Source: an uncultured bacterium (GTDB lineage Bacteria; Bacillota; Clostridia; Oscillospirales; Oscillospiraceae). From it: a stretch of 24,000 nucleotides of DNA. Position numbers and translations under genes: made by a program. Under the pieces are notes generated by a model, which ran no database searches, had not been told where the DNA came from, and worked only from the letters and a program-made list of their open reading frames with translations. Below are positions 1,191-12,974 of the stretch, in pieces (the stretch's first letter is position 1; every line of letters begins with the position of its first letter). The stretch covers positions 24,744 through 48,743 of the forward strand of contig CATKXO010000007.1 of assembly GCA_949840775.1 (NCBI GenBank). The letters are read 5' to 3'.

Positions 1191-3836
1191 CTACAGGGCC
1201 GCCCGTTCCCGCTCCGGAGCAGGCTTTTTCCCCCTGCGGCCCGCGGCCTTGGCCCACTCGCAGATTGGGATGGGGGCTGCGGCCAGGGCCAGGACGGTAC
1301 ACCACTGGGGGATGTCCATGGGGACGACGGAAAACACCCCCTGGAGAGGCGGAACCAACAGTACGGACAGCTGCATGGCCAGTCCCGCCAGGAACGCCCG
1401 GTTCATGGCCGGATTGGAGAAAACCCCCTGGGAAAAGAGGGAGCGCTCCTCGCTGCGGACGTTGAACGCGTGGAACAGCTGGCACAGGGTAAGGGTAGCG
1501 AAAGCCATGGTGTTGGCTGCGGCCCCCTCCATCCCCGGAGCGGCCAGCCGGGTAAAGCCCAGAAAATAGGCCGCCAGGGTGAGCCCCCCCACCATCAGCC
1601 CCTGCCAGGCCAGACGGAGGGAAAACCTGCGGTCAAAGAGCCCGGCTGCGGCGTTCCGGGGGGCCTCCTCCATCACGCCCTCCTCCACCGGCTCCACTCC
1701 CAGGGCCAGGGCGGGGAGGGAGTCGGTGACCAGGTTGAGCCAAAGCAGCTGCACCGGCACCAGGGGCATCTGCCCGAAGTCCAGCAGCGTGGCCGCGAAG
1801 ATGGTGAAAATCTCCCCGATGTTGCAGGAGAGCAGGTAGTGGATGGCCTTGCGGATGTTGGAGTAGATCCCCCGGCCCTCCTCAATGGCGGAGACAATGG
1901 TGGAGAAGTTGTCGTCGGTGAGGACCATGTCCGCCGCCCCCTTGGCCACGTCGGTGCCCGTCCTGCCCATGGCGCAGCCGATGTCGGCGGCCTTCAGCGC
2001 CGGGGCGTCATTCACCCCGTCCCCCGTCATGGCCACCACCTGGCCCCGCTTCTGCCAGGCCTGGACGATGCGCATTTTGTGCTCCGGAGACACCCGGGCG
2101 AAGACGGCAAACCGGTGGATATCCTGCTCCAGCAGCTCCTGGGGCATGAAGTCCAGCTCCGCGCCCGTCACCGCCCAGTCTCCGGGATGGGCGATGTCCA
2201 GCTCCTTGGCGATGGCCACCGCTGTGGCCCGGTGATCGCCGGTAATCATCACCGGCCGCACCCCCGCCAGGTGGCACTTGGCCACCGCCGCCCGCACCTC
2301 GGGCCGGGGCGGGTCCATCAGGCCGAAAAGGCCCAGAAAGGTCAGGCCGCTCTCCACCGTCCGGGGCTCCGGGTCCTGGGGCAGGGAGCGAAGCTCCCGC
2401 CGGGCCACGGCGATCACCCGCAGGGCCTTGCCCGCCATCTCCTCGTTGGCGGCGGTGATTCTGGCCCGGTCCCCCTGGGACAGGGGACCCTGGGGGGTGC
2501 TGACACACCGGCCCAGCAGCACGTCGGGGGCCCCCTTTACAAAGGCGACCCAGCCCCCCGACCGGCCGGTATGTATGGTCGTCATCAGCTTGCGGGCAGA
2601 GTCGAAGGGGAGGTCGGCCACCCGCGGAAAATGCTCCAGCTCCCGGGCCTGGTCCACGCCGTCCCGGGCGGCGGCCACCACCAGCGCCCCCTCGGTGGGG
2701 TCGCCGGAGGCGGTGGGGGCCCCGGCCTTCCAGTTCAGCCGGGCGTCGGAGCAGAGGCAGCCCGCCACCATGGCGTCCCGCCGCCGGGCTCCGGGGGTGA
2801 GCCACAGCTGCTGCACCGTCATCCGGTTCTGGGTAAGGGTGCCCGTCTTGTCGGAGCAGATCACCCCGGCACAGCCCAGGGTCTCCACGGCGGGGAGCTT
2901 TTTCACAATGGCGTTTTTATCCGCCAGCCGCTGGACCCCCAGGGCCAGCACAATGGTGACAATGGCGGGCAGGCCCTCGGGGATGGCGGCCACCGCCAGG
3001 GAGACGGCGGTGAGGAACATGTCCAGAATGCCCTTCCCCTGAAACAGCCCCACCCCGAACATCACCGCGCACACCGACAGGCACAGAAAGGACAGGGACT
3101 TTGAAATCTCCCCCATCCGCTTTTGGAGCGGGGTCTCCCCCTCGCCGCTGGCCAGCAGCAGACCGGCAATCTGGCCCATTTGGGTGTCCATGCCGGTGGC
3201 CACCACCAGGGCCGTCCCCCGGCCGGCAGTAACCAGCGTTCCAGAAATCAGCATATTGACCCGGTCCCCCAGGGGAGTGTCCGCAGGGAGGGCCTCCGCC
3301 GCCTGCTTCTCCACCGGAACCGACTCCCCCGTCATGGCCGACTCGTCGGCCTGGAGGCGGCTGCACTCCATAATCCGGGCGTCGGCGGGGACCTGGTCCC
3401 CGGCCTCCAGGAGGATGACATCCCCAGGCACCAGGGCGGAGGCGGCCACCTTGTGGGGCAGGCCCTCCCGCAGCACATTGGCCTGGGGGGAGGACATCCG
3501 CCGCAGCTCCTCCAGGGCCTGCTGGGCGTGGTCCTCCTGGGTGATGGAAATGACGCCGTTGACTACCACGATGACCAGGATGATGACCCCGTCCAGCCAG
3601 TCCTCCCCGCCGCTGGCCAGCAGAGACAGGGCCGCCGCTGCCAGGAGCACCAGAATCATGGGGTCCTTCAGCTGGCCCAAAATCCGGATCAGCAGACTGG
3701 GAGGCTCCGGCTGGGCCAGCAGATTGGGGCCGTATTTCTCCAGGCGCTGGGCGGCCTCCCGCTCCGTCAGCCCCTGGGAGCGGCTGCCCAGCTCCTTCAT
3801 CACCTGGGCAAGCCGCCTGCTATGCCAGTCGCCCAT
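1191..3836 (-). CDS. P2-type cation-translocating ATPase (Ca2+-ATPase-like)
   Basis: Motifs: CSDKTGTLT (phospho-Asp site), AAIPEGLPAIVT (TM4 ion site), MITGDH, TGDGVNDAPALKAADIG. Start placed at ATG 3836 (MGDWHS..., GGGGGAG RBS about 6 nt upstream). The ORF-track ATG at 3884 has no RBS. Confidence 0.9.
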   Translation of the reverse strand: MGDWHSRRLAQVMKELGSRSQGLTEREAAQRLEKYGPNLLAQPEPPSLLIRILGQLKDPMILVLLAAAALSLLASGGEDWLDGVIILVIVVVNGVISITQEDHAQQALEELRRMSSPQANVLREGLPHKVAASALVPGDVILLEAGDQVPADARIMECSRLQADESAMTGESVPVEKQAAEALPADTPLGDRVNMLISGTLVTAGRGTALVVATGMDTQMGQIAGLLLASGEGETPLQKRMGEISKSLSFLCLSVCAVMFGVGLFQGKGILDMFLTAVSLAVAAIPEGLPAIVTIVLALGVQRLADKNAIVKKLPAVETLGCAGVICSDKTGTLTQNRMTVQQLWLTPGARRRDAMVAGCLCSDARLNWKAGAPTASGDPTEGALVVAAARDGVDQARELEHFPRVADLPFDSARKLMTTIHTGRSGGWVAFVKGAPDVLLGRCVSTPQGPLSQGDRARITAANEEMAGKALRVIAVARRELRSLPQDPEPRTVESGLTFLGLFGLMDPPRPEVRAAVAKCHLAGVRPVMITGDHRATAVAIAKELDIAHPGDWAVTGAELDFMPQELLEQDIHRFAVFARVSPEHKMRIVQAWQKRGQVVAMTGDGVNDAPALKAADIGCAMGRTGTDVAKGAADMVLTDDNFSTIVSAIEEGRGIYSNIRKAIHYLLSCNIGEIFTIFAATLLDFGQMPLVPVQLLWLNLVTDSLPALALGVEPVEEGVMEEAPRNAAAGLFDRRFSLRLAWQGLMVGGLTLAAYFLGFTRLAAPGMEGAAANTMAFATLTLCQLFHAFNVRSEERSLFSQGVFSNPAMNRAFLAGLAMQLSVLLVPPLQGVFSVVPMDIPQWCTVLALAAAPIPICEWAKAAGRRGKKPAPERERAAL

Positions 3837-6856: not shown

Positions 6857-6876
6857 CTGATTTTGAATAAGTCTTG

Positions 6877-6910
6877 AAACGCCTGGATTTTTTCCAGGCG
6901 TTTTCTTTTC
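6877..6910 (+). terminator. Rho-independent terminator just after the truncated fragment
   Basis: aaacgcctgga-ttttt-tccaggcgttt forms an 11-bp stem followed by TTTTCTTTTC. Confidence 0.7.
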
Positions 6911-7170
6911 ACCTACATAATTAACGGCATTGTTAAAGTTAATAAAAAATTTAAAAAAATTAACTAAAACACTTGACGATTACCGTTTGGTAAGTTAATC
7001 ATATAAGCATGGAACATGAAATAACCGAAAGGCAACTCTTGACGGCTTCTGCCTGCTTTCCGCATCTCCACAATTTCTGCTTCTATTAGTTTCATATTTG
7101 TCCGTTTTTACTGGGGCGGTTCACATTTGGTAGGCCGGTGCCGGGTTTCGTTTTGCGCAAGGTAAAACCG

Positions 7171-7200
7171 TTGGACAAACAGCTGTTCAGGAGGTATAAT
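7171..7200 (+). promoter_or_regulatory. Sigma-70-type promoter of the small RHH gene
   Basis: TTGGAC (7171-7176), 18-nt spacer, TATAAT (7195-7200). RBS AAAGGAG at 7206-7212. Confidence 0.55.
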
Positions 7201-7220
7201 GGCTCAAAGGAGTGATCGCG

Positions 7221-7379
7221 ATGCCGAAAATTGACGCCCAGCTGGGAATCCGGGTGACCAAAGACCTGAAAGCCCGCCTGACCGCCCAGGCCAGGAGCGA
7301 GATGAAAAGCGTCTCCACCCTGGTGGTCCAAGTGATGGAGGCATATCTGGAATCGGTAGGAAACGGAAAAAAGGAGTAA
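7221..7379 (+). CDS. Small ribbon-helix-helix (CopG/Arc-like) protein, 52 aa
   Basis: Translation: MPKIDAQLGIRVTKDLKARLTAQARSEMKSVSTLVVQVMEAYLESVGNGKKE. It shows the RHH pattern: a beta-strand (LGIRVT) followed by two helices. It has a good promoter and RBS and is followed by a hairpin. Not in the ORF track (under 60 aa). Confidence 0.5.
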   Translation: MPKIDAQLGIRVTKDLKARLTAQARSEMKSVSTLVVQVMEAYLESVGNGKKE

Positions 7380-7384
7380 AAGGA

Positions 7385-7421: not shown

Positions 7422-10190
7422 TTACTCGATTTCGATGGCGGGAACCACCTTCGCGCATCGGGGGCAGAGGGTGGGATGCTTGGCATCCTGACCCACGGTG
7501 GGCAGCACCTTCCAGCACCGCTCGCACTTCTGGCCCTGGGCGGGCTCCACATCGGCCCGGAAGAGGCCCTTGACCTCGGTCTCCACCTGGGAGACGATGA
7601 GCAGGTCGGCCAGCTCCTCCTGGTCCATCTCGGCCAGGAAGGCGCACTCCTCCCGGATATTGAGCGTGACCTTGGCCTCCAGGCTCTTGCCGATCTTCTT
7701 CTCGGCCCGGGCGGTCTCCAGCTCGCCGTTGACCATGCTGCGAACGTCAATAATGGCGTCCCACCGGTCCATGGCGGCCTGGTCCAGGGCATAGATGGCA
7801 AAAGGGCTGTTCATCTCATTGAGCAGCACGTTCCGTCCGTCGTCGCTGTCCCGGTGGGGCATGGCCAGCCAGATCTCGTCGCAGGTGAAGGCCAGGATGG
7901 GGGCGAAGAGCTTGGTCATGGTGTCCAGGATGAGCCACAGGGCGGTCTGGGCGGAGCGGCGCTTCAAACCATCCTTCTCCTCGCAGTACAGCCTATCCTT
8001 GATGATGTCCAGATAGAAGGAGGACAGCTCCACCACGCAGAAGTCGTTGATGGCGTGGGAGACTACGTGGAACTCATAGTTGTCATAGGCGGCGAAGCAC
8101 TTCTCAATGAGCCCGTTCAGCTTGGTAATGGCCCAGCGGTCCAGCTCCACCATGTCGCTGGGGGCCACCAGATTGTTGGGATCGAAGCCGTCCAGGTTGC
8201 CCAGGCAGTACCGGGCGGTGTTGCGGAATTTCAGATAGTTCTGGGACAGCTGCTTGAAGATGGCGTCGGAGCAGCGCACATCCACGTGGTAATCGGCGGA
8301 GCCCGCCCACAGGCGGATCAGGTCCGCGCCGTACTTCTTAAAGATGTCGGCGGGGTCCACGCCGTTGCCCAGGGACTTGTGCATGGCCTTGCCCTCGCCG
8401 TCCACGGTCCAGCCGTGGGTGACGCACTCCTTAAAGGGAGCCCCCTTGCCCAGGGCGCCCACGGCGGTGAGCAGGGAGGACTGGAACCAACCGCGGTACT
8501 GGTCCAGGCCCTCCATATAGACGGTGGCGGGCCAGAAGCCCTGGTCGTTCTGCATGGAGGCGAAGTGGGTGGAGCCGGAGTCGAACCAGCCGTCCAGGGT
8601 GTCCTCCTCCTTGGTGAAGCCGCTCTTGGAGCCGCAGTGGGGGCAGGCGAAGTCCTTGGGCAGGATGTCCGCCGCCTCGGTCTCATACCAGGCGTTGGAG
8701 CCCTTCTCCCCGAAGAGGGCGGACACAGCGGCGATGGTCTCGTCGGTGCAGATGGGCTTGCCGCAGTCCGAGCAGTAGAACACGGGGATAGGCAGGCCCC
8801 ACCGGCGCTGCCGGGAGATGCACCAGTCGGCCCGCTCCTGGATCATGGACTTCATCCGGTCGATGCCCCAGCCGGGCACCCAGCGCACCTCCTCGCAGGC
8901 GGCCACGGCGGCGTCCTTGAAGGACTCCACCGAGCAGAACCACTGGGGGGTGGCCCGGAAGATGATGGGCTTTTTGCACCGCCAGCAGTGGGGGTAGGAG
9001 TGGACGATGTCCTCGGAGGCGAACAGGGCCCCGCTGGCCTTCATGTCGGCCAGGATGACGGGGTTGCTCTCGTCGGTGCCCATGCCGGCGTACTTGCCGG
9101 CGTAGTCGGTGTGGCGGCCCCGGTCGTCCACGGGCACCACCATCTCGATCTTGTACCGCTTGCAGGTCTCGTAGTCGTCCGCGCCGAAGCCGGGGGCGGT
9201 GTGGACGCAGCCGGTGCCGCTGTCCATGGTGACGTACTCGGCGGTGCAAAGCTGGCTGGTCTTGTCCAGGAAGGGGTGCTGGGCCAGCATATACTCAAAG
9301 TCAGAACCGGTGAAGGTGGCGACGGTCTCATAATTCTCGATGCCGCCCACCTTCATCACCTTGTCCCGGAGGGCCTCGGCCAGGATATACATCTCACCGT
9401 TGTCCGCCTTCACCAGCACGTAGCTGTCCCGGGGGTGGAGGGCGATGGCCAGGTTGCCGGGCAGGGTCCAAATGGTGGTGGTCCAGATGAGGAAGTACAT
9501 CTTGGACACGTCGCCGTACTGCCCCAGCTTGCCCAGGTCGTCCTTCACCTGGAACTTCACGTAGACGGTGGTGACCGGGTCGTCCTGGTATTCGATCTCC
9601 GCCTCGGCCAGGGCGGTCTCGTCGTGGGGGCACCAGTACACCGGCTTCAGGCCCTTGTAGATATAGCCGTTCTTGTACATGGCCCCGAAAATCTTCACCT
9701 CCTCGGCCTCGAAGCCGGGGGACATGGTGAGGTAGGGGTTCTCCCAGTCGCCGATGACCCCCATCCGCTTAAAGCCGTCCCGCTGCACGTCCACATAGTG
9801 CTGGGCGAACTCGTGGCAGGCGGTGCGGAACTCGGGGACGGACATGGCCTTGCGGTTGAGCTTGTTCTGCTTGATGATGGCGCTCTCAATGGGCATGCCG
9901 TGGTTGTCCCAGCCGGGGATGTAGGGGGTGAGATAGCCCCGCATGGCGGCGGTGCGGGTCATAAAGTCCTTGATGGACTTGTTCAGGGCGTGGCCCATGT
10001 GGAGCGCGCCGTTGGAGAAGGGAGGGCCGTCGTGGAGGGAGTACAGGGGCTTGCCCTCGTTCTTTTTCAGCAGCTCGTGGTAGAGGTCCATGTCCTCCCA
10101 GCGCTTGAGCATGTCGGGCTCCCGGGCGGGCAGCCCCGCCCGCATGGGAAAGTCGGTTTTCGGCAGGTTAATCGTCTTGTTGTAGTCCAT
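7422..10190 (-). CDS. ileS: Isoleucine--tRNA ligase
   Basis: 922 aa. N-terminus MDYNKTINLPKTDFPMRAGLP. HMGHALN (HIGH motif), KMHKSLGN (KMSKS motif), and a C-terminal zinc finger CERCW...CPRC. Confidence 0.97.
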   Translation of the reverse strand: MDYNKTINLPKTDFPMRAGLPAREPDMLKRWEDMDLYHELLKKNEGKPLYSLHDGPPFSNGALHMGHALNKSIKDFMTRTAAMRGYLTPYIPGWDNHGMPIESAIIKQNKLNRKAMSVPEFRTACHEFAQHYVDVQRDGFKRMGVIGDWENPYLTMSPGFEAEEVKIFGAMYKNGYIYKGLKPVYWCPHDETALAEAEIEYQDDPVTTVYVKFQVKDDLGKLGQYGDVSKMYFLIWTTTIWTLPGNLAIALHPRDSYVLVKADNGEMYILAEALRDKVMKVGGIENYETVATFTGSDFEYMLAQHPFLDKTSQLCTAEYVTMDSGTGCVHTAPGFGADDYETCKRYKIEMVVPVDDRGRHTDYAGKYAGMGTDESNPVILADMKASGALFASEDIVHSYPHCWRCKKPIIFRATPQWFCSVESFKDAAVAACEEVRWVPGWGIDRMKSMIQERADWCISRQRRWGLPIPVFYCSDCGKPICTDETIAAVSALFGEKGSNAWYETEAADILPKDFACPHCGSKSGFTKEEDTLDGWFDSGSTHFASMQNDQGFWPATVYMEGLDQYRGWFQSSLLTAVGALGKGAPFKECVTHGWTVDGEGKAMHKSLGNGVDPADIFKKYGADLIRLWAGSADYHVDVRCSDAIFKQLSQNYLKFRNTARYCLGNLDGFDPNNLVAPSDMVELDRWAITKLNGLIEKCFAAYDNYEFHVVSHAINDFCVVELSSFYLDIIKDRLYCEEKDGLKRRSAQTALWLILDTMTKLFAPILAFTCDEIWLAMPHRDSDDGRNVLLNEMNSPFAIYALDQAAMDRWDAIIDVRSMVNGELETARAEKKIGKSLEAKVTLNIREECAFLAEMDQEELADLLIVSQVETEVKGLFRADVEPAQGQKCERCWKVLPTVGQDAKHPTLCPRCAKVVPAIEIE

Positions 10191-10692
10191 TTTTACAGTA
10201 CTCCTTCATTGTAATTTTATATAATGTTTTCATTTGTTCAAGAGATGGGTTAAAATGTCCAATAATAGGAATGTTTGTGATATGCTTACAATTTGGATAG
10301 GCAGAACAGCTTAAAAATGGTCCGTACCTTCCTTGCTTAAGAATCAAAGATGCTCCACATTCAGGACAGTTTTTTCCTAAATGAATATTTTCAGGTCTAT
10401 ACTCAGGTTTGGAGGATAACTTAACATATTCAAGGGAAGTATGACCGAAAAAACATATTCCGCCATCAGTATCAGCTTTCATAATTTTGCAATAGGCGTG
10501 ATTTATAAAAACTCGATAGTTTTTTAAATCATCAATGCCCAAATAGCAAAGATAATCAGAAATTAAAATGCCAAAAACAGTTGGAGAACGCCCTTTTGTA
10601 GATAAGTATTCTCCTGGAAATAACTCTTTAAGTTCTGCGCCAGTAACATAGCGTTCCTCATAGCCATTATAAACAGGACGCTTATCTTGCAT
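10168..10692 (-). CDS. Hypothetical 174-aa protein: unknown N-terminal domain plus a C-terminal topoisomerase-type C4 zinc ribbon
   Basis: ATG 10692 is preceded by the RBS AAGGAAGGGGG. CPECGASLILKQGRYGPFLSCSAYPNCKH is the CxxC...CxxC zf-C4_Topoisom pattern. About 32% GC (hand count, 10261-10320). The 3' end overlaps the ileS start by 23 nt. The ORF-track N-terminal extension to 10809 reads through the T-box terminator and is rejected. Confidence 0.6.
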   Translation of the reverse strand: MQDKRPVYNGYEERYVTGAELKELFPGEYLSTKGRSPTVFGILISDYLCYLGIDDLKNYRVFINHAYCKIMKADTDGGICFFGHTSLEYVKLSSKPEYRPENIHLGKNCPECGASLILKQGRYGPFLSCSAYPNCKHITNIPIIGHFNPSLEQMKTLYKITMKEYCKNGLQQDD

Positions 10693-10720
10693 AATAATAC
10701 CCCCTTCCTTTGACACATAA

Positions 10721-10958
10721 CAAAAACGCCCCCGTCCCATAAAGAGACAAAGGCGTAAACCTCTGCGGTACCACTCTTCTTGCCGGGGCATAAATCCTCG
10801 GCCGCTCAAAAGCTGCCCGGTAACGGGGGCGTCCGGAGGGGCCTACTGCGATTCAGCCCTCAGCTCCAAGGTGATCTTCGCCGCTCCCTCCCGTCCGCCT
10901 TTCACCAAACGGCGGCTCTCTTTGCGTCTTGGGGGCGGGTACTCGTCCTTTTCCGCGC
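10721..10958 (-). promoter_or_regulatory. T-box riboswitch leader with an Ile (AUC) specifier
   Basis: - strand elements: stem I base AAGG/CCUU; specifier loop ACGAGUA // CGAAG-AUC-A (AUC at 10875-10873); AGAGAG; distal loop GGUGAAA; second stem with AGUA; T-box AGAGUGGUACCGCAG. The antiterminator is AAGAG/CUCUU plus GCAGAGG/CCUUUGU with a UGGUACC bulge. The terminator is ACGCCUUUGUCUC-UUUAU-GGGACGGGGGCGU followed by UUUUU. Confidence 0.85.
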
Positions 10959-10978
10959 ATTTTGCATGTGTGTTTCGT

Positions 10979-11007
10979 ATTCTATCCGGTTTTTGCGGGG
11001 TTGTCAA
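10979..11007 (-). promoter_or_regulatory. Sigma-70-type promoter of the T-box/ileS unit
   Basis: TTGACA (11007-11002), 17-nt spacer, TAGAAT (10984-10979). The TAG of the -10 is the rluD stop codon. Confidence 0.65.
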
Positions 11008-11932
11008 GGGGTGTTTTTGCCAATGACCGCCCAATTTTCCGCAATATTTCCTCAAACCACTGGGGCAAAGGGCACTCCAGCTCCACCAGCTCCCCGGAGG
11101 CGGGGTGGACAAACCGCAGCCGCCGGGCGTGAAGGCACTGTCCCGCCAGGCCGGGGACGGGCTTTTTGCTGCCGTAGACGGTATCCCCCAGCAGGGGGTG
11201 GCCCAGGGAGGCCAGGTGGACCCGAATCTGGTGGGTGCGGCCTGTCTCCAGGCGGCACTCCACATGGGTGTACCCGGGGTACCGGGCCAGGACGGACCAG
11301 TGGGTCACCGCCTCCCGGCCGTTTTTACGGTCCACGGCCATCTTTTTCCGGTCCACCGGGTGCCGTCCGATGGGGGCGTTCACGGTGCCGCTGTCCTCTT
11401 TCAGGTTCCCCACCGCCACCGCCTCATAGGTCCGGGCCAGGGAGTGGTCCTGGAGCTGGGCGGCCAGGGCCAGGTGGGCCCGGTCGTTCTTGGCGGCGAT
11501 GATGAGCCCGGAGGTGTCCCGGTCGATGCGGTGGACGATGCCGGGGCGCAGCTCTCCGTTGATTCCAGACAGTGAACTTCCACAGTGATATAACAGGGCG
11601 TTGACCAAAGTTCCGTCCGGGTGGCCCGGCGCGGGGTGGACCACCAGCCCCACCGGCTTGTTGACCACAATCACGTCTTCGTCCTCATAGACCACGTCCA
11701 GGGGGATGTTCTGGGGGACCACGTCAATGGGCTCCGGATCGGGGAGGACCGCCTCCAGCACCTTACCGGGGACGGGCCGGTCGTTTTTCCGCACCGGCTT
11801 GCCCTCCAGTGTCACCGCTCCCCGCTCCAGCAGCTTCTGGGCTCCGGAGCGGGTCAGGCCGGGCACCAGCCGGGCCAGCAGGGCGTCGGCCCGCTCCCCC
11901 TCCCGGTCAGCCCTCAGCGTCAGCGCTGTCAT
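10982..11932 (-). CDS. rluD: RluA-family 23S rRNA pseudouridine synthase (RluD-like)
   Basis: 316 aa. N-terminal S4 domain (RADALLARLVPGLTRSGAQKLLERGAVTLEG), catalytic motif HRIDRDTSGLI, and GRTHQIRVHL. Confidence 0.9.
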   Translation of the reverse strand: MTALTLRADREGERADALLARLVPGLTRSGAQKLLERGAVTLEGKPVRKNDRPVPGKVLEAVLPDPEPIDVVPQNIPLDVVYEDEDVIVVNKPVGLVVHPAPGHPDGTLVNALLYHCGSSLSGINGELRPGIVHRIDRDTSGLIIAAKNDRAHLALAAQLQDHSLARTYEAVAVGNLKEDSGTVNAPIGRHPVDRKKMAVDRKNGREAVTHWSVLARYPGYTHVECRLETGRTHQIRVHLASLGHPLLGDTVYGSKKPVPGLAGQCLHARRLRFVHPASGELVELECPLPQWFEEILRKIGRSLAKTPLDNPAKTG

Positions 11933-12398: not shown

Positions 12399-12572
12399 GG
12401 AAAATTTCCTCCATTAAAGGGCAGGGGCCGCATTTCTGCGGCCCCTTTCATAAGGTCAGCGCTTTGGCAGGCGTACCAGGCTCCTGCGTCTCTCGGGTTT
12501 CCCCTGTCCATGCCATCGGCGTGTGGTCGGTACGAAATCTACCACCTCAAAGCGCCAGCTTATCCTACTCTC

Positions 12573-12601
12573 AGTATAGCCGTATTATTCAGATTTGTAA
12601 A
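12573..12601 (-). promoter_or_regulatory. Candidate promoter driving a ~165-nt leader ahead of lspA
   Basis: TTTACA (12601-12596), 17-nt spacer, TATACT (12578-12573). The -35 lies in the last codons of the PBECR-like ORF. Confidence 0.5.
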
Positions 12602-12962
12602 GAATTTTTTTGTTGTGCAGCAGGCGGTTCCATTCCTTTTCCCGAATTTTCATAAAAGTAATCACAGAATTTTTATAGTTTGGATTATCTGACGGCGTGA
12701 CCAGGCGAAGGGCCAGCCGAAAATGCTCATTTTGCTCCGACACCTTTTTCAAAACGACTGCCGTATTGGGACGGGCATCGGCAATGATGTAATCGGGGTT
12801 CAATATAATTTCAGGAATGTAAGCGCAAAATTTCTCATAATCCTTTGGGTGATGTAATTTTATGTGTTCAATCCGTTCCTCTGTGATGATAACTTCTCTG
12901 GTCTGGATGTCCATTGAAACACATTGATAAATACCAAATTCCAAATCGCACAGTTTAATCAT
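12585..12962 (-). CDS. Hypothetical 125-aa protein, PBECR-like (Barnase/EndoU/ColicinE5-D/RelE-like nuclease fold) by motif recollection
   Basis: About 33% GC (hand count, 12781-12840). ITEERIEHIKLHHPKDYEKFCAYIPEIILNPDYII...FRLALRL resembles the H-I-K-x-K/H-HP-x-DY ... PDY pattern I associate with PBECR-family proteins of Firmicutes mobile elements; this is unverified. The RBS GAGGAA overlaps the stop codon of the upstream loader gene, with a 12-nt gap. Confidence 0.5.
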   Translation of the reverse strand: MIKLCDLEFGIYQCVSMDIQTREVIITEERIEHIKLHHPKDYEKFCAYIPEIILNPDYIIADARPNTAVVLKKVSEQNEHFRLALRLVTPSDNPNYKNSVITFMKIREKEWNRLLHNKKILYKSE

Positions 12963-12974
12963 AGGTCCGATTCC

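Follow-up and report, generated by a model that had tools for sequence, protein, structure and literature searches.

T-box riboswitches (Rfam RF00230) lead aminoacyl-tRNA synthetase operons, among them the ileS operons of Firmicutes, and are usually viewed as tightly coupled to the gene that they control. We analysed such a leader in a 24,000-nt stretch (hereafter the window) of contig CATKXO010000007.1, from an uncultured bacterium of the Oscillospiraceae, where an open reading frame (ORF) of low GC content and 174 codons, termed ORF174, lies between the isoleucine T-box and ileS, the gene for isoleucyl-tRNA synthetase (IleRS). The leader itself is canonical, with promoter, stem I carrying an AUC specifier, T-box sequence, terminator/antiterminator and ileS all in place. 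The operon differs from those described in that unrelated accessory genes stand 5' of the synthetase gene, in the window as well as in over half of the T-box-bearing relatives, and the gut Oscillospiraceae clade concerned tolerates and exchanges one to five unrelated genes between leader and synthetase gene.

Several other described systems resemble this locus in part. Chromosomal hot spots for horizontal transfer hold variable accessory content between core-gene anchors and exchange it by homologous recombination; the slot in front of ileS differs from them in its scale of one to five genes and in lying within a single regulated transcription unit. Free-standing homing genes and phage 'morons' are likewise ORF-only, deviant in composition, tightly packed and polymorphic for presence or absence, with a tract of flank similarity, but the ileS locus has yielded no nuclease domain, its target spacer lacks conservation and it also accepts unrelated cargo. 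The C4 zinc ribbon of the topoisomerase I (Topo I) C terminus (PF01396) is known fused to NERD, nuclease-like or DNA-binding modules. ORF174 has one clear copy with all four cysteines, and a gene near one of its family members (at locus L098; loci from other assemblies carry L numbers) encodes a ribbon fused to NERD, whereas the N-terminal partner in ORF174 is neither NERD nor any other recognisable module. Finally, heterogeneous polyimmunity loci consist of tandem genes that share one orientation, are tightly spaced and differ between close relatives (Zhang et al. 2012, PMC3482391), and the gene arrays that fill the slot in relatives of the window are alike in these traits and include Imm51 and Imm-NTF2-like genes. 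By contrast, the window holds one gene, of no Imm family and with a DNA-type zinc ribbon, and the ileS locus stands under a riboswitch before an essential gene rather than beside a recombinase.

Taken singly, the T-box, the Topo I ribbon and an orphan gene gained horizontally at a hot spot are thus of known kinds. Two things appear to be undescribed in the literature that we searched: an exchangeable, often immunity-like cargo slot between T-box terminator and essential synthetase gene across a clade, and a protein family with an unplaceable N-terminal domain. The search returned no account of passenger genes in ileS T-box leaders and none of DUF6487, a family found in the slot, which is not proof of novelty.

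The reading that we favour, with moderate confidence, is that ORF174 is an orphan gene of mobilome origin, caught in a T-box-ileS cargo slot permissive for recombination. Its source would be the mobile gene pool of low-GC Firmicutes, and its landing place the short, non-conserved spacer that runs from the ileS T-box terminator to the ileS ribosome-binding site. The 3' half of the T-box and the 5' end of ileS may serve as homology arms, and with conserved arms around the spacer, co-oriented terminator-free inserts would be exchangeable between related species by homologous recombination, presumably leaving the riboswitch and the ileS ribosome-binding site undisturbed. The locus would then be a small-scale example of a conserved regulatory RNA and an essential-gene 5' end acting as homology arms that let foreign cassettes move between species ~13% diverged. 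For the host, ORF174 would be a passenger outside isoleucine homeostasis.

ORF174 inside the predicted ileS transcription unit

The elements of the locus are, in the order of transcription:

10982-11932: rluD-like pseudouridine synthase gene, upstream of the leader (PseudoU_synth_2 and S4, Pfam)
10979..11007, minus strand: sigma-70-type promoter of the ileS leader, TTGACA-17-TAGAAT, 11 of 12 consensus positions
10740..10964, minus strand: T-box leader with isoleucine specifier (Rfam RF00230)
10719..10756, minus strand: T-box terminator hairpin (stem 10756-10726) and U-run
10222..10717, minus strand: low-GC insert of ~490-500 bp, placed by where homology to relatives stops and resumes and by the GC profile
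10168..10692, minus strand: ORF174, 174 aa, from ATG 10692 to TAA 10170-10168
10417..10674, minus strand: beta-rich N-terminal domain of ORF174, ~aa 7-92
10267..10374, minus strand: Topo I-type C4 zinc ribbon of ORF174, aa 107-142 (PF01396, Zn_ribbon_Top1)
10214..10291, minus strand: two weak promoter-like sites at the 3' end of the insert, TTGTAA-18-TATTAT and TTGAAC-16-TAAAAT
10168..10225, minus strand: native ileS ribosome-binding stretch and first 23 nt of ileS, from alignment with L026 and L034
7422..10190, minus strand: ileS, IleRS of 922 aa, ATG at 10190 (Pfam tRNA-synt_1, Anticodon_1 and zf-FPG_IleRS)

The leader promoter overlaps the 3' end of the rluD-like gene. The T-box that follows scores 118.7 bits against RF00230 (gathering score 93) and covers the whole model (1-219); its specifier region, GAAGAUCACC, yields AUC (Ile) followed by the purine A, and the gene downstream is ileS. 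The conserved T-box sequence AGAGUGGUACCGC stands directly 5' of the terminator hairpin, as befits a competing antiterminator/terminator pair. The hairpin is found in both the minimum-free-energy and the centroid folds and has a stem of 13 pairs, seven of them G-C, that runs into TTTTTGTT, the sequence after 10756-10726 being UUUUUGUU.

ORF174 begins ~26 nt past this terminator with a Shine-Dalgarno sequence, GGAAGGGGG, at 10708-10700, and overlaps the ileS start by 23 nt. On this anatomy, translation would proceed from the ORF's own Shine-Dalgarno sequence, and its ribosomes would cross the ileS start and stop 20 nt inside ileS. GC content is 33.9% in ORF174 against 63.7% in ileS and ~63% in the flanks, and at third codon positions it is 24% against 93%. 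A scan of the window locus revealed no terminator-like site between ORF174 and ileS. Judged by its position, ORF174 would be co-transcribed with ileS, from the ileS promoter and only when uncharged tRNA-Ile blocks termination; if so, expression of accessory or conflict genes is tied to tRNA-Ile charging, an unexpected coupling. The initial annotation, made from the sequence alone, had already described the promoter, the full T-box leader with its AUC specifier, the intact antiterminator/terminator switch with its U-run, the position, ribosome-binding site, ATG and length of ORF174, its overlap with ileS, its low GC content against ~63% in ileS and its place within the T-box/ileS transcription unit. 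All of these points hold up, the last by position and by the lack of a terminator ahead of ileS.

The junctions of the insert were set by where homology to relatives ends and resumes, using the empty sites L026, L034 and L036. On the left, native sequence runs through the terminator U-run to ~10718, which puts the junction at ~10714-10718; on the right, the native AT-rich stretch resumes at ~10216-10228. Because both junctions were placed against empty sites, the insert can be said to hold a Shine-Dalgarno sequence and an ORF and nothing else. The ileS Shine-Dalgarno sequence, GAAGGAG at 10207-10201, lies within the native AT-rich stretch and, because the ORF174 frame reads through this ribosome-binding stretch, the last ~12 codons of ORF174 are host DNA; most homologues stop 20-30 residues sooner. 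No inverted or direct repeats beyond chance flank the insert, no target duplication was seen there, and no flank motif is common to the 18 ORF174-family loci. An insertion sequence, a miniature inverted-repeat transposable element (MITE) or an integron cassette was rejected for want of terminal repeats, target-site duplication, attC or transposase. An assembly artefact is excluded, because identical T-box-ORF-ileS junctions recur in independent assemblies, namely L095-L097 (three Logan runs) and L103 (ENA ERZ779627).

The T-box-ileS spacer in relatives and the exchange of ORF174

By its IleRS, the host is placed in the Oscillospiraceae near Flintibacter muris, 'Bacterium 1xD42-67' and mouse-gut metagenome-assembled genomes (92-95% identity), the identity to other Oscillospiraceae IleRS ranging over 70-95%. 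By tblastn, an ORF174 homologue was found at 0 of 80 related ileS loci. A T-box is detectable at 55 of them, and the hypervariable spacer from terminator to ATG measures 33-106 nt ('empty') in 25 of the 55, for example in L026 (47 nt), L036 and L044, and 221-2726 nt (occupied) in the other 30. In six more close relatives, including F. muris DSM 110149, cargo genes abut ileS; here the T-box would lie past the 3-kb upstream flank examined. Comparison of the locus between relatives, which had been proposed along with the initial annotation, therefore shows that empty alleles exist, and it shows equally that ORF174 is not a conserved occupant of host-like composition, since it is absent at 80 of 80 related loci and has 34% GC. 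The statement that a passenger between a T-box and its synthetase gene is abnormal stands for T-boxes generally but fails for this clade, where 30 of 55 spacers are occupied and cargo abuts ileS in six further genomes; the window stands out by the identity of its passenger. The empty-site spacers (L026, L034, L036, L044 and others) have in common just the U-run and the Shine-Dalgarno sequence. In more distant Oscillospiraceae, with IleRS mostly 72-84% identical, no ileS T-box was found within 3 kb upstream (1.3 kb for L054), so that T-box control of ileS is not universal in this family (loci L042, L054, L066, L075, L077, L078, L081, L083-L087, L089 and L094).

The cargo in the occupied slots is oriented as ileS and mostly host-like in GC, and comprises genes for DUF6487, DUF1963/YwqG, DUF4299, Imm51 (89.5 bits), Imm-NTF2-like proteins (18.6-21.6 bits, under the Pfam cut-off of 25) and an unassigned 250-aa protein. 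Arrays of three to five such genes, in which all of these kinds are represented, stand in the closest relatives. In L016 and L018 the sole strong promoter lies ahead of the T-box, and a convincing terminator between cargo and ileS was not seen. Arrays 5' of ileS are present in L015 (1-3000, F. muris DSM 110149), L016, L017, L019, L020, L024, L027, L053 and L080; they sit between T-box and ileS wherever the flank extends far enough, and look like a polyimmunity-type locus under a riboswitch.

These arrays bring up the alternative that ORF174 is a new immunity- or defence-type cassette in a polyimmunity-like locus expressed with ileS, where it replaces DUF6487, Imm51 or Imm-NTF2 genes. The tandem, co-oriented and strain-variable arrays, with a clear Imm51 and weak Imm-NTF2 matches, fit the heterogeneous polyimmunity loci of PMC3482391, a family member in Oscillibacter alternates with a DUF4274 gene (see below), and recombinases often adjoin both family members and polyimmunity loci. 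However, searches of ORF174 against Imm families and PADLOC models came back empty, none of the family members was seen to have a toxin gene beside it, a DNA-binding zinc ribbon is atypical for immunity proteins, and the Imm-NTF2 matches stay below the Pfam threshold. Nor was DUF1963 counted as an immunity gene: for the DUF1963/YwqG superfamily, its defining paper goes no further than a putative domain for protein interaction, with an interaction or chaperone-like role proposed (PMC4275035). We regard this alternative as rather unlikely. More doubtful still is a wider proposal, in which the spacer in Flintibacter, Pseudoflavonifractor and Lawsonibacter would be reserved for the expression of exchangeable conflict genes under the control of tRNA-Ile charging, with immunity-like arrays as cargo and ORF174 as a new nucleic-acid-binding member. 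If this were true, a lowered level of charged tRNA-Ile, caused by IleRS inhibitors, tRNA-targeting toxins or starvation in competition, would induce the synthetase together with protective cargo.

Other observations were made on the spacers of relatives. The commonest occupant directly 5' of ileS is a DUF6487 zinc-ribbon gene (MNCPxCG...CxxC) of 65-90 aa, present at ~22 of 80 loci (for example L018 2747-2965, L031 2671-2904 and L035 2702-2905) in carriers whose IleRS are 78-92% identical; this conserved DUF6487-ileS pairing might be functional. Some occupied spacers contain GC-rich, hairpin-forming non-coding DNA (L018 2500-2745, L045 2510-2720, L040 2417-3000), which resembles repetitive extragenic palindromes or MITEs, e.g. 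CACGGCTTTGCCGTG...CCTCCTTTGCCAAAGGAGG, and lies between terminator and cargo or in spacers without any ORF. L021 has a second T-box (1303-1506, minus strand; 106.8 bits) on the opposite strand, ~530 nt upstream of the ileS T-box.

Outside the 80 related loci, a second species-level lineage (L095-L097 and L103) carries ORF174 with identical junctions in flanks that are ~13% diverged. Flank identities of the window and L103 were compared on the same segment, since a divergent PBECR2 module distorts the wider figure. The segment rluD+lspA is 86.8% identical between window and L103, against 87.2-89.3% between window and the ORF-less L026, L018 and L045; for the dnaI-like gene the values are 82.0% against 79-80% (L026, L018), and for the T-box 90.8% against 87.7-92.7% (L026, L018, L045). 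ORF174, by contrast, is 98.7% identical between window and L103 (7 differences in 526 nt), and identity over the first 284 nt of ileS is 97.5%, compared to 90.1-93.7% with the other relatives tested (including L053, L016 and L027). Because both are far more alike than the flanks, ORF174 and the adjoining ileS 5' end were exchanged long after the lineages diverged; the predicted breakpoints lie near the T-box terminator and more than 284 nt into ileS. The horizontal acquisition suggested at the outset is thereby strengthened: the GC gap is ~30 points, 0 of 80 relatives have the gene, and an identity of 98.7% stands in flanks of ~87%.

The same tract is what co-conversion would predict if ORF174 were a free-standing homing-type selfish gene, as the initial annotation had also considered, whose product cuts the empty allele so that repair copies the gene in and co-converts ileS. 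The precise presence/absence polymorphism, the identical junctions in two lineages ~13% diverged, the lone ORF-only insertions beside conserved genes in two different hosts and the constant AT-richness of the gene would all suit such an element. Against it, no nuclease family or fold emerged despite a confident model of the protein, the target spacer differs between species, the same slots accept unrelated cargo that cannot all plausibly consist of homing genes, many family members are ordinary cargo beside integrases, a near-invariant His-His pair is lost in the window copy, and plain homologous recombination accounts equally well for the similarity tract. Homing is very unlikely on these grounds, and this part of the initial proposal was not supported.

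In the L103 lineage the ATG start of ORF174 has become ACG, while the other codon changes are four synonymous ones and one Ile-to-Val. The ACG lies at about 433 in L095 and about 3998 in L103 (window 10691), the Shine-Dalgarno sequence there also has one change, and gene callers in this lineage start at a GTG eight codons upstream that has no Shine-Dalgarno sequence. Translation of ORF174 may be reduced in the ACG lineage.

These changes also bear on whether ORF174 has been domesticated as a host factor for isoleucine starvation or IleRS function, such as a nucleic-acid-binding regulator. Its place within the T-box unit, its translational overlap with ileS and an ORF that stays intact in two lineages, with four of six changed codons synonymous, are what such a role would entail. 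Yet the gene is lacking at all related ileS loci, its homologues occupy unrelated contexts and are never found with aminoacyl-tRNA synthetase genes, its composition is extremely foreign without amelioration, and its start codon is lost in the sister lineage, all of which makes domestication very unlikely. Capture of a mobile orphan gene, the reading that we prefer, accommodates the exchange between the two lineages as recombination through the shared arms.

The ORF174 protein and its family

The zinc ribbon that the initial annotation had recognised at the C terminus is a firm match to PF01396 (54.4 bits against a cut-off of 32, E = 1.1e-14), with the zinc ligands C109, C112, C129 and C135 (CxxC ... 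CxxxxxC), each kept in at least 90% of the family, and the NCBIfam matches to ORF174 fall in TopA C-terminal regions. ORF174 most likely binds nucleic acid through this ribbon. The first ~100 residues, in contrast, had resisted recognition and continue to do so: they have no match in Pfam, PHROGs, NCBIfam or PADLOC, one-by-one scans of 25 family N-domains gave scattered chance matches only, and an N-domain profile retrieved no related PDB sequence. Given the family alignment, AlphaFold2 nevertheless predicted the whole protein with a mean local confidence score (pLDDT) of 89.4 and a predicted template-modelling (TM) score of 0.83, and the N-domain alone with a pLDDT of 90.8. In the model, aa 12-92 fold into seven strands and two short helices, the ribbon follows, and aa 151-167 form a C-terminal helix. 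Foldseek searches of both models against PDB and BFVD matched Topo I zinc-ribbon structures and returned no N-domain match below E = 0.01; matches to PTB/PH and beta-clamp folds were rejected as homology (E >= 0.01, TM <= 0.39). Neither profile nor structure searches thus assign this part to a housekeeping or any other family, and the N-domain is a real conserved domain without placeable family or fold. The same searches, with a high-confidence model, detected no nuclease fold or family in ORF174, and no LAGLIDADG, HNH, GIY-YIG, PD-(D/E)xK, EDxHD or Vsr-like nuclease domain was recognised in it.

The ORF174 family comprises ~30 related clusters at 90% identity, whose members have 143-184 aa and show 44-59% identity; their sources are without exception metagenomes or metagenome-assembled genomes, and no member bears a name. 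A profile search of 1.84 billion representatives added ~16 further divergent full-length relatives among its top 150 matches, which were swamped by multi-ribbon Topo I-like proteins. The window protein has all ten invariant family residues (Y8, G10, Y11, E13, G18, Y59, F62, C68, F81 and F82) and the family's N-terminal motifs PVYNGYxExY, YRIFxN, FC and FFGH. The GRHH motif, whose His-His pair at least 90% of close homologues keep, is replaced by KGRSP (R35, S36) both in the window protein and in the P0001 lineage. With a 54-bit ribbon, a pLDDT of 89.4 and ~30 clusters that conserve the N-terminal motifs, ORF174 is a real protein. Versions of 92-100 aa that have the N-domain without the zinc ribbon are encoded at L102, L119, L120, L123 and L125; all of them end in ...AK(D/E), and L102 is an IMG/VR viral contig.

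The genomic contexts of the family vary but fall into recurring types. Members lie directly 3' of tyrosine integrases in L101 (gap of 13 nt) and L116/117 (gap of 11 nt) and directly 3' of large serine recombinases in L107 and L119; the L011 member resides in a restriction-modification island that also holds Vsr, FokI-like, Mrr and Dcm genes, the L110 member follows an Eco57I-like methylase, and the L120 member follows a SpaA/TED adhesin. Apart from recombinases the neighbours include no recurrent partner gene, a PHROGs scan of them was uninformative, and, as said, toxin genes were not seen beside any member, nor aminoacyl-tRNA synthetase genes beside the homologues of ORF174. In every host the gene is AT-rich, and in high-GC hosts it is 14-28 GC points below its flanks (for example 0.37 against 0.59, 0.40 against 0.60 and 0.38 against 0.52). 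ORF174 probably belongs to the conflict or accessory repertoire of mobile elements, with a defence, anti-defence or immunity-like role, and its family is a reasonable candidate for a new function of this type. In L098 (5001-7274), a gap of 9 nt separates a member from the following gene, for a 349-aa Macro-domain protein, after which comes one for a NERD + Zn_ribbon_Top1 protein; this group may be a small conflict-type operon.

The survey of homologue contexts, including those beside conserved genes, uncovered a second, independent slot of the same kind, just before hslO. Here a family member of 143 aa (37% GC against 59%) lies between a methyltransferase gene and hslO of an Oscillibacter species, while in strains of the same species, with Hsp33 99% identical, a 119-aa DUF4274 gene occupies exactly the same place. 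An 86%-identical relative also has a DUF4274 gene in this junction, and in an 81%-identical relative the junction is empty, with 37 nt. The cassette boundaries are exact, coinciding on one side with the upstream stop codon and on the other with the Shine-Dalgarno sequence of hslO (junction sites: L001 4973-5444, L128 2124-2501, L134 2463-2501). The family alternates with other small accessory genes in such slots and, from the hslO and ileS cases together, it thus repeatedly fills small cargo slots just 5' of housekeeping genes.

Several points weigh against capture of a mobile conflict gene as the explanation. First, the label 'accessory/conflict gene', which probably applies, is drawn from genomic context only. 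Second, a tblastn search with the N-domain gave no match in 50,697 phage or 72,556 plasmid records, and 'mobilome' therefore has to mean integrative elements or islands, seen only in metagenomes. Third, no attC- or att-like site and no transposase accompany the insert to point to an insertion mechanism. Fourth, the promoter-like sites at 10214-10291, which score 9/12 each in a consensus scan, could, if active, give ileS T-box-independent transcription. Fifth, the near-invariant His-His is replaced by R35/S36 in the window protein and, sixth, ACG has taken the place of the ATG start in the sister lineage, so the gene may be decaying rather than in use.

The last two points, along with a C terminus that runs into host DNA and so suggests that the original stop was lost, would also be expected of a decaying, functionless remnant tolerated in the spacer as junk DNA. 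The 174 codons nevertheless stay open in AT-rich DNA, where stops arise easily, the four zinc ligands and the invariant family residues are retained, and the AlphaFold2 model is confident, so that a mere remnant is improbable.

Other features of the window

Further low-GC or small-ORF features lie outside the T-box-ileS locus. A second low-GC module (~41% GC) occupies 12410-12974 (minus strand), between the dnaI-like gene and lspA. It contains an ORF for a PBECR2 nuclease of 125 aa (12585-12962, minus strand; PF18810, 52.7 bits), directly followed by a skipping-rope RNA (12555-12459, minus strand; RF02924, 42.4 bits). L026 lacks this module, its flanks being joined directly, and L018 apparently lacks it too; the L103 lineage has a strongly diverged copy.

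Downstream of ileS, a low-GC stretch (38-42% GC) at 6860-7170 is without counterpart in related loci; its sole contents are a 43-aa ORF (6964-7095, minus strand) and a hairpin followed by T's, and it has no Rfam match. Adjoining it is a 55-aa ORF (7212-7379, plus strand) that resembles ribbon-helix-helix proteins by sequence alone, and the region 7170-7380 is conserved in L027, L025 and L018.

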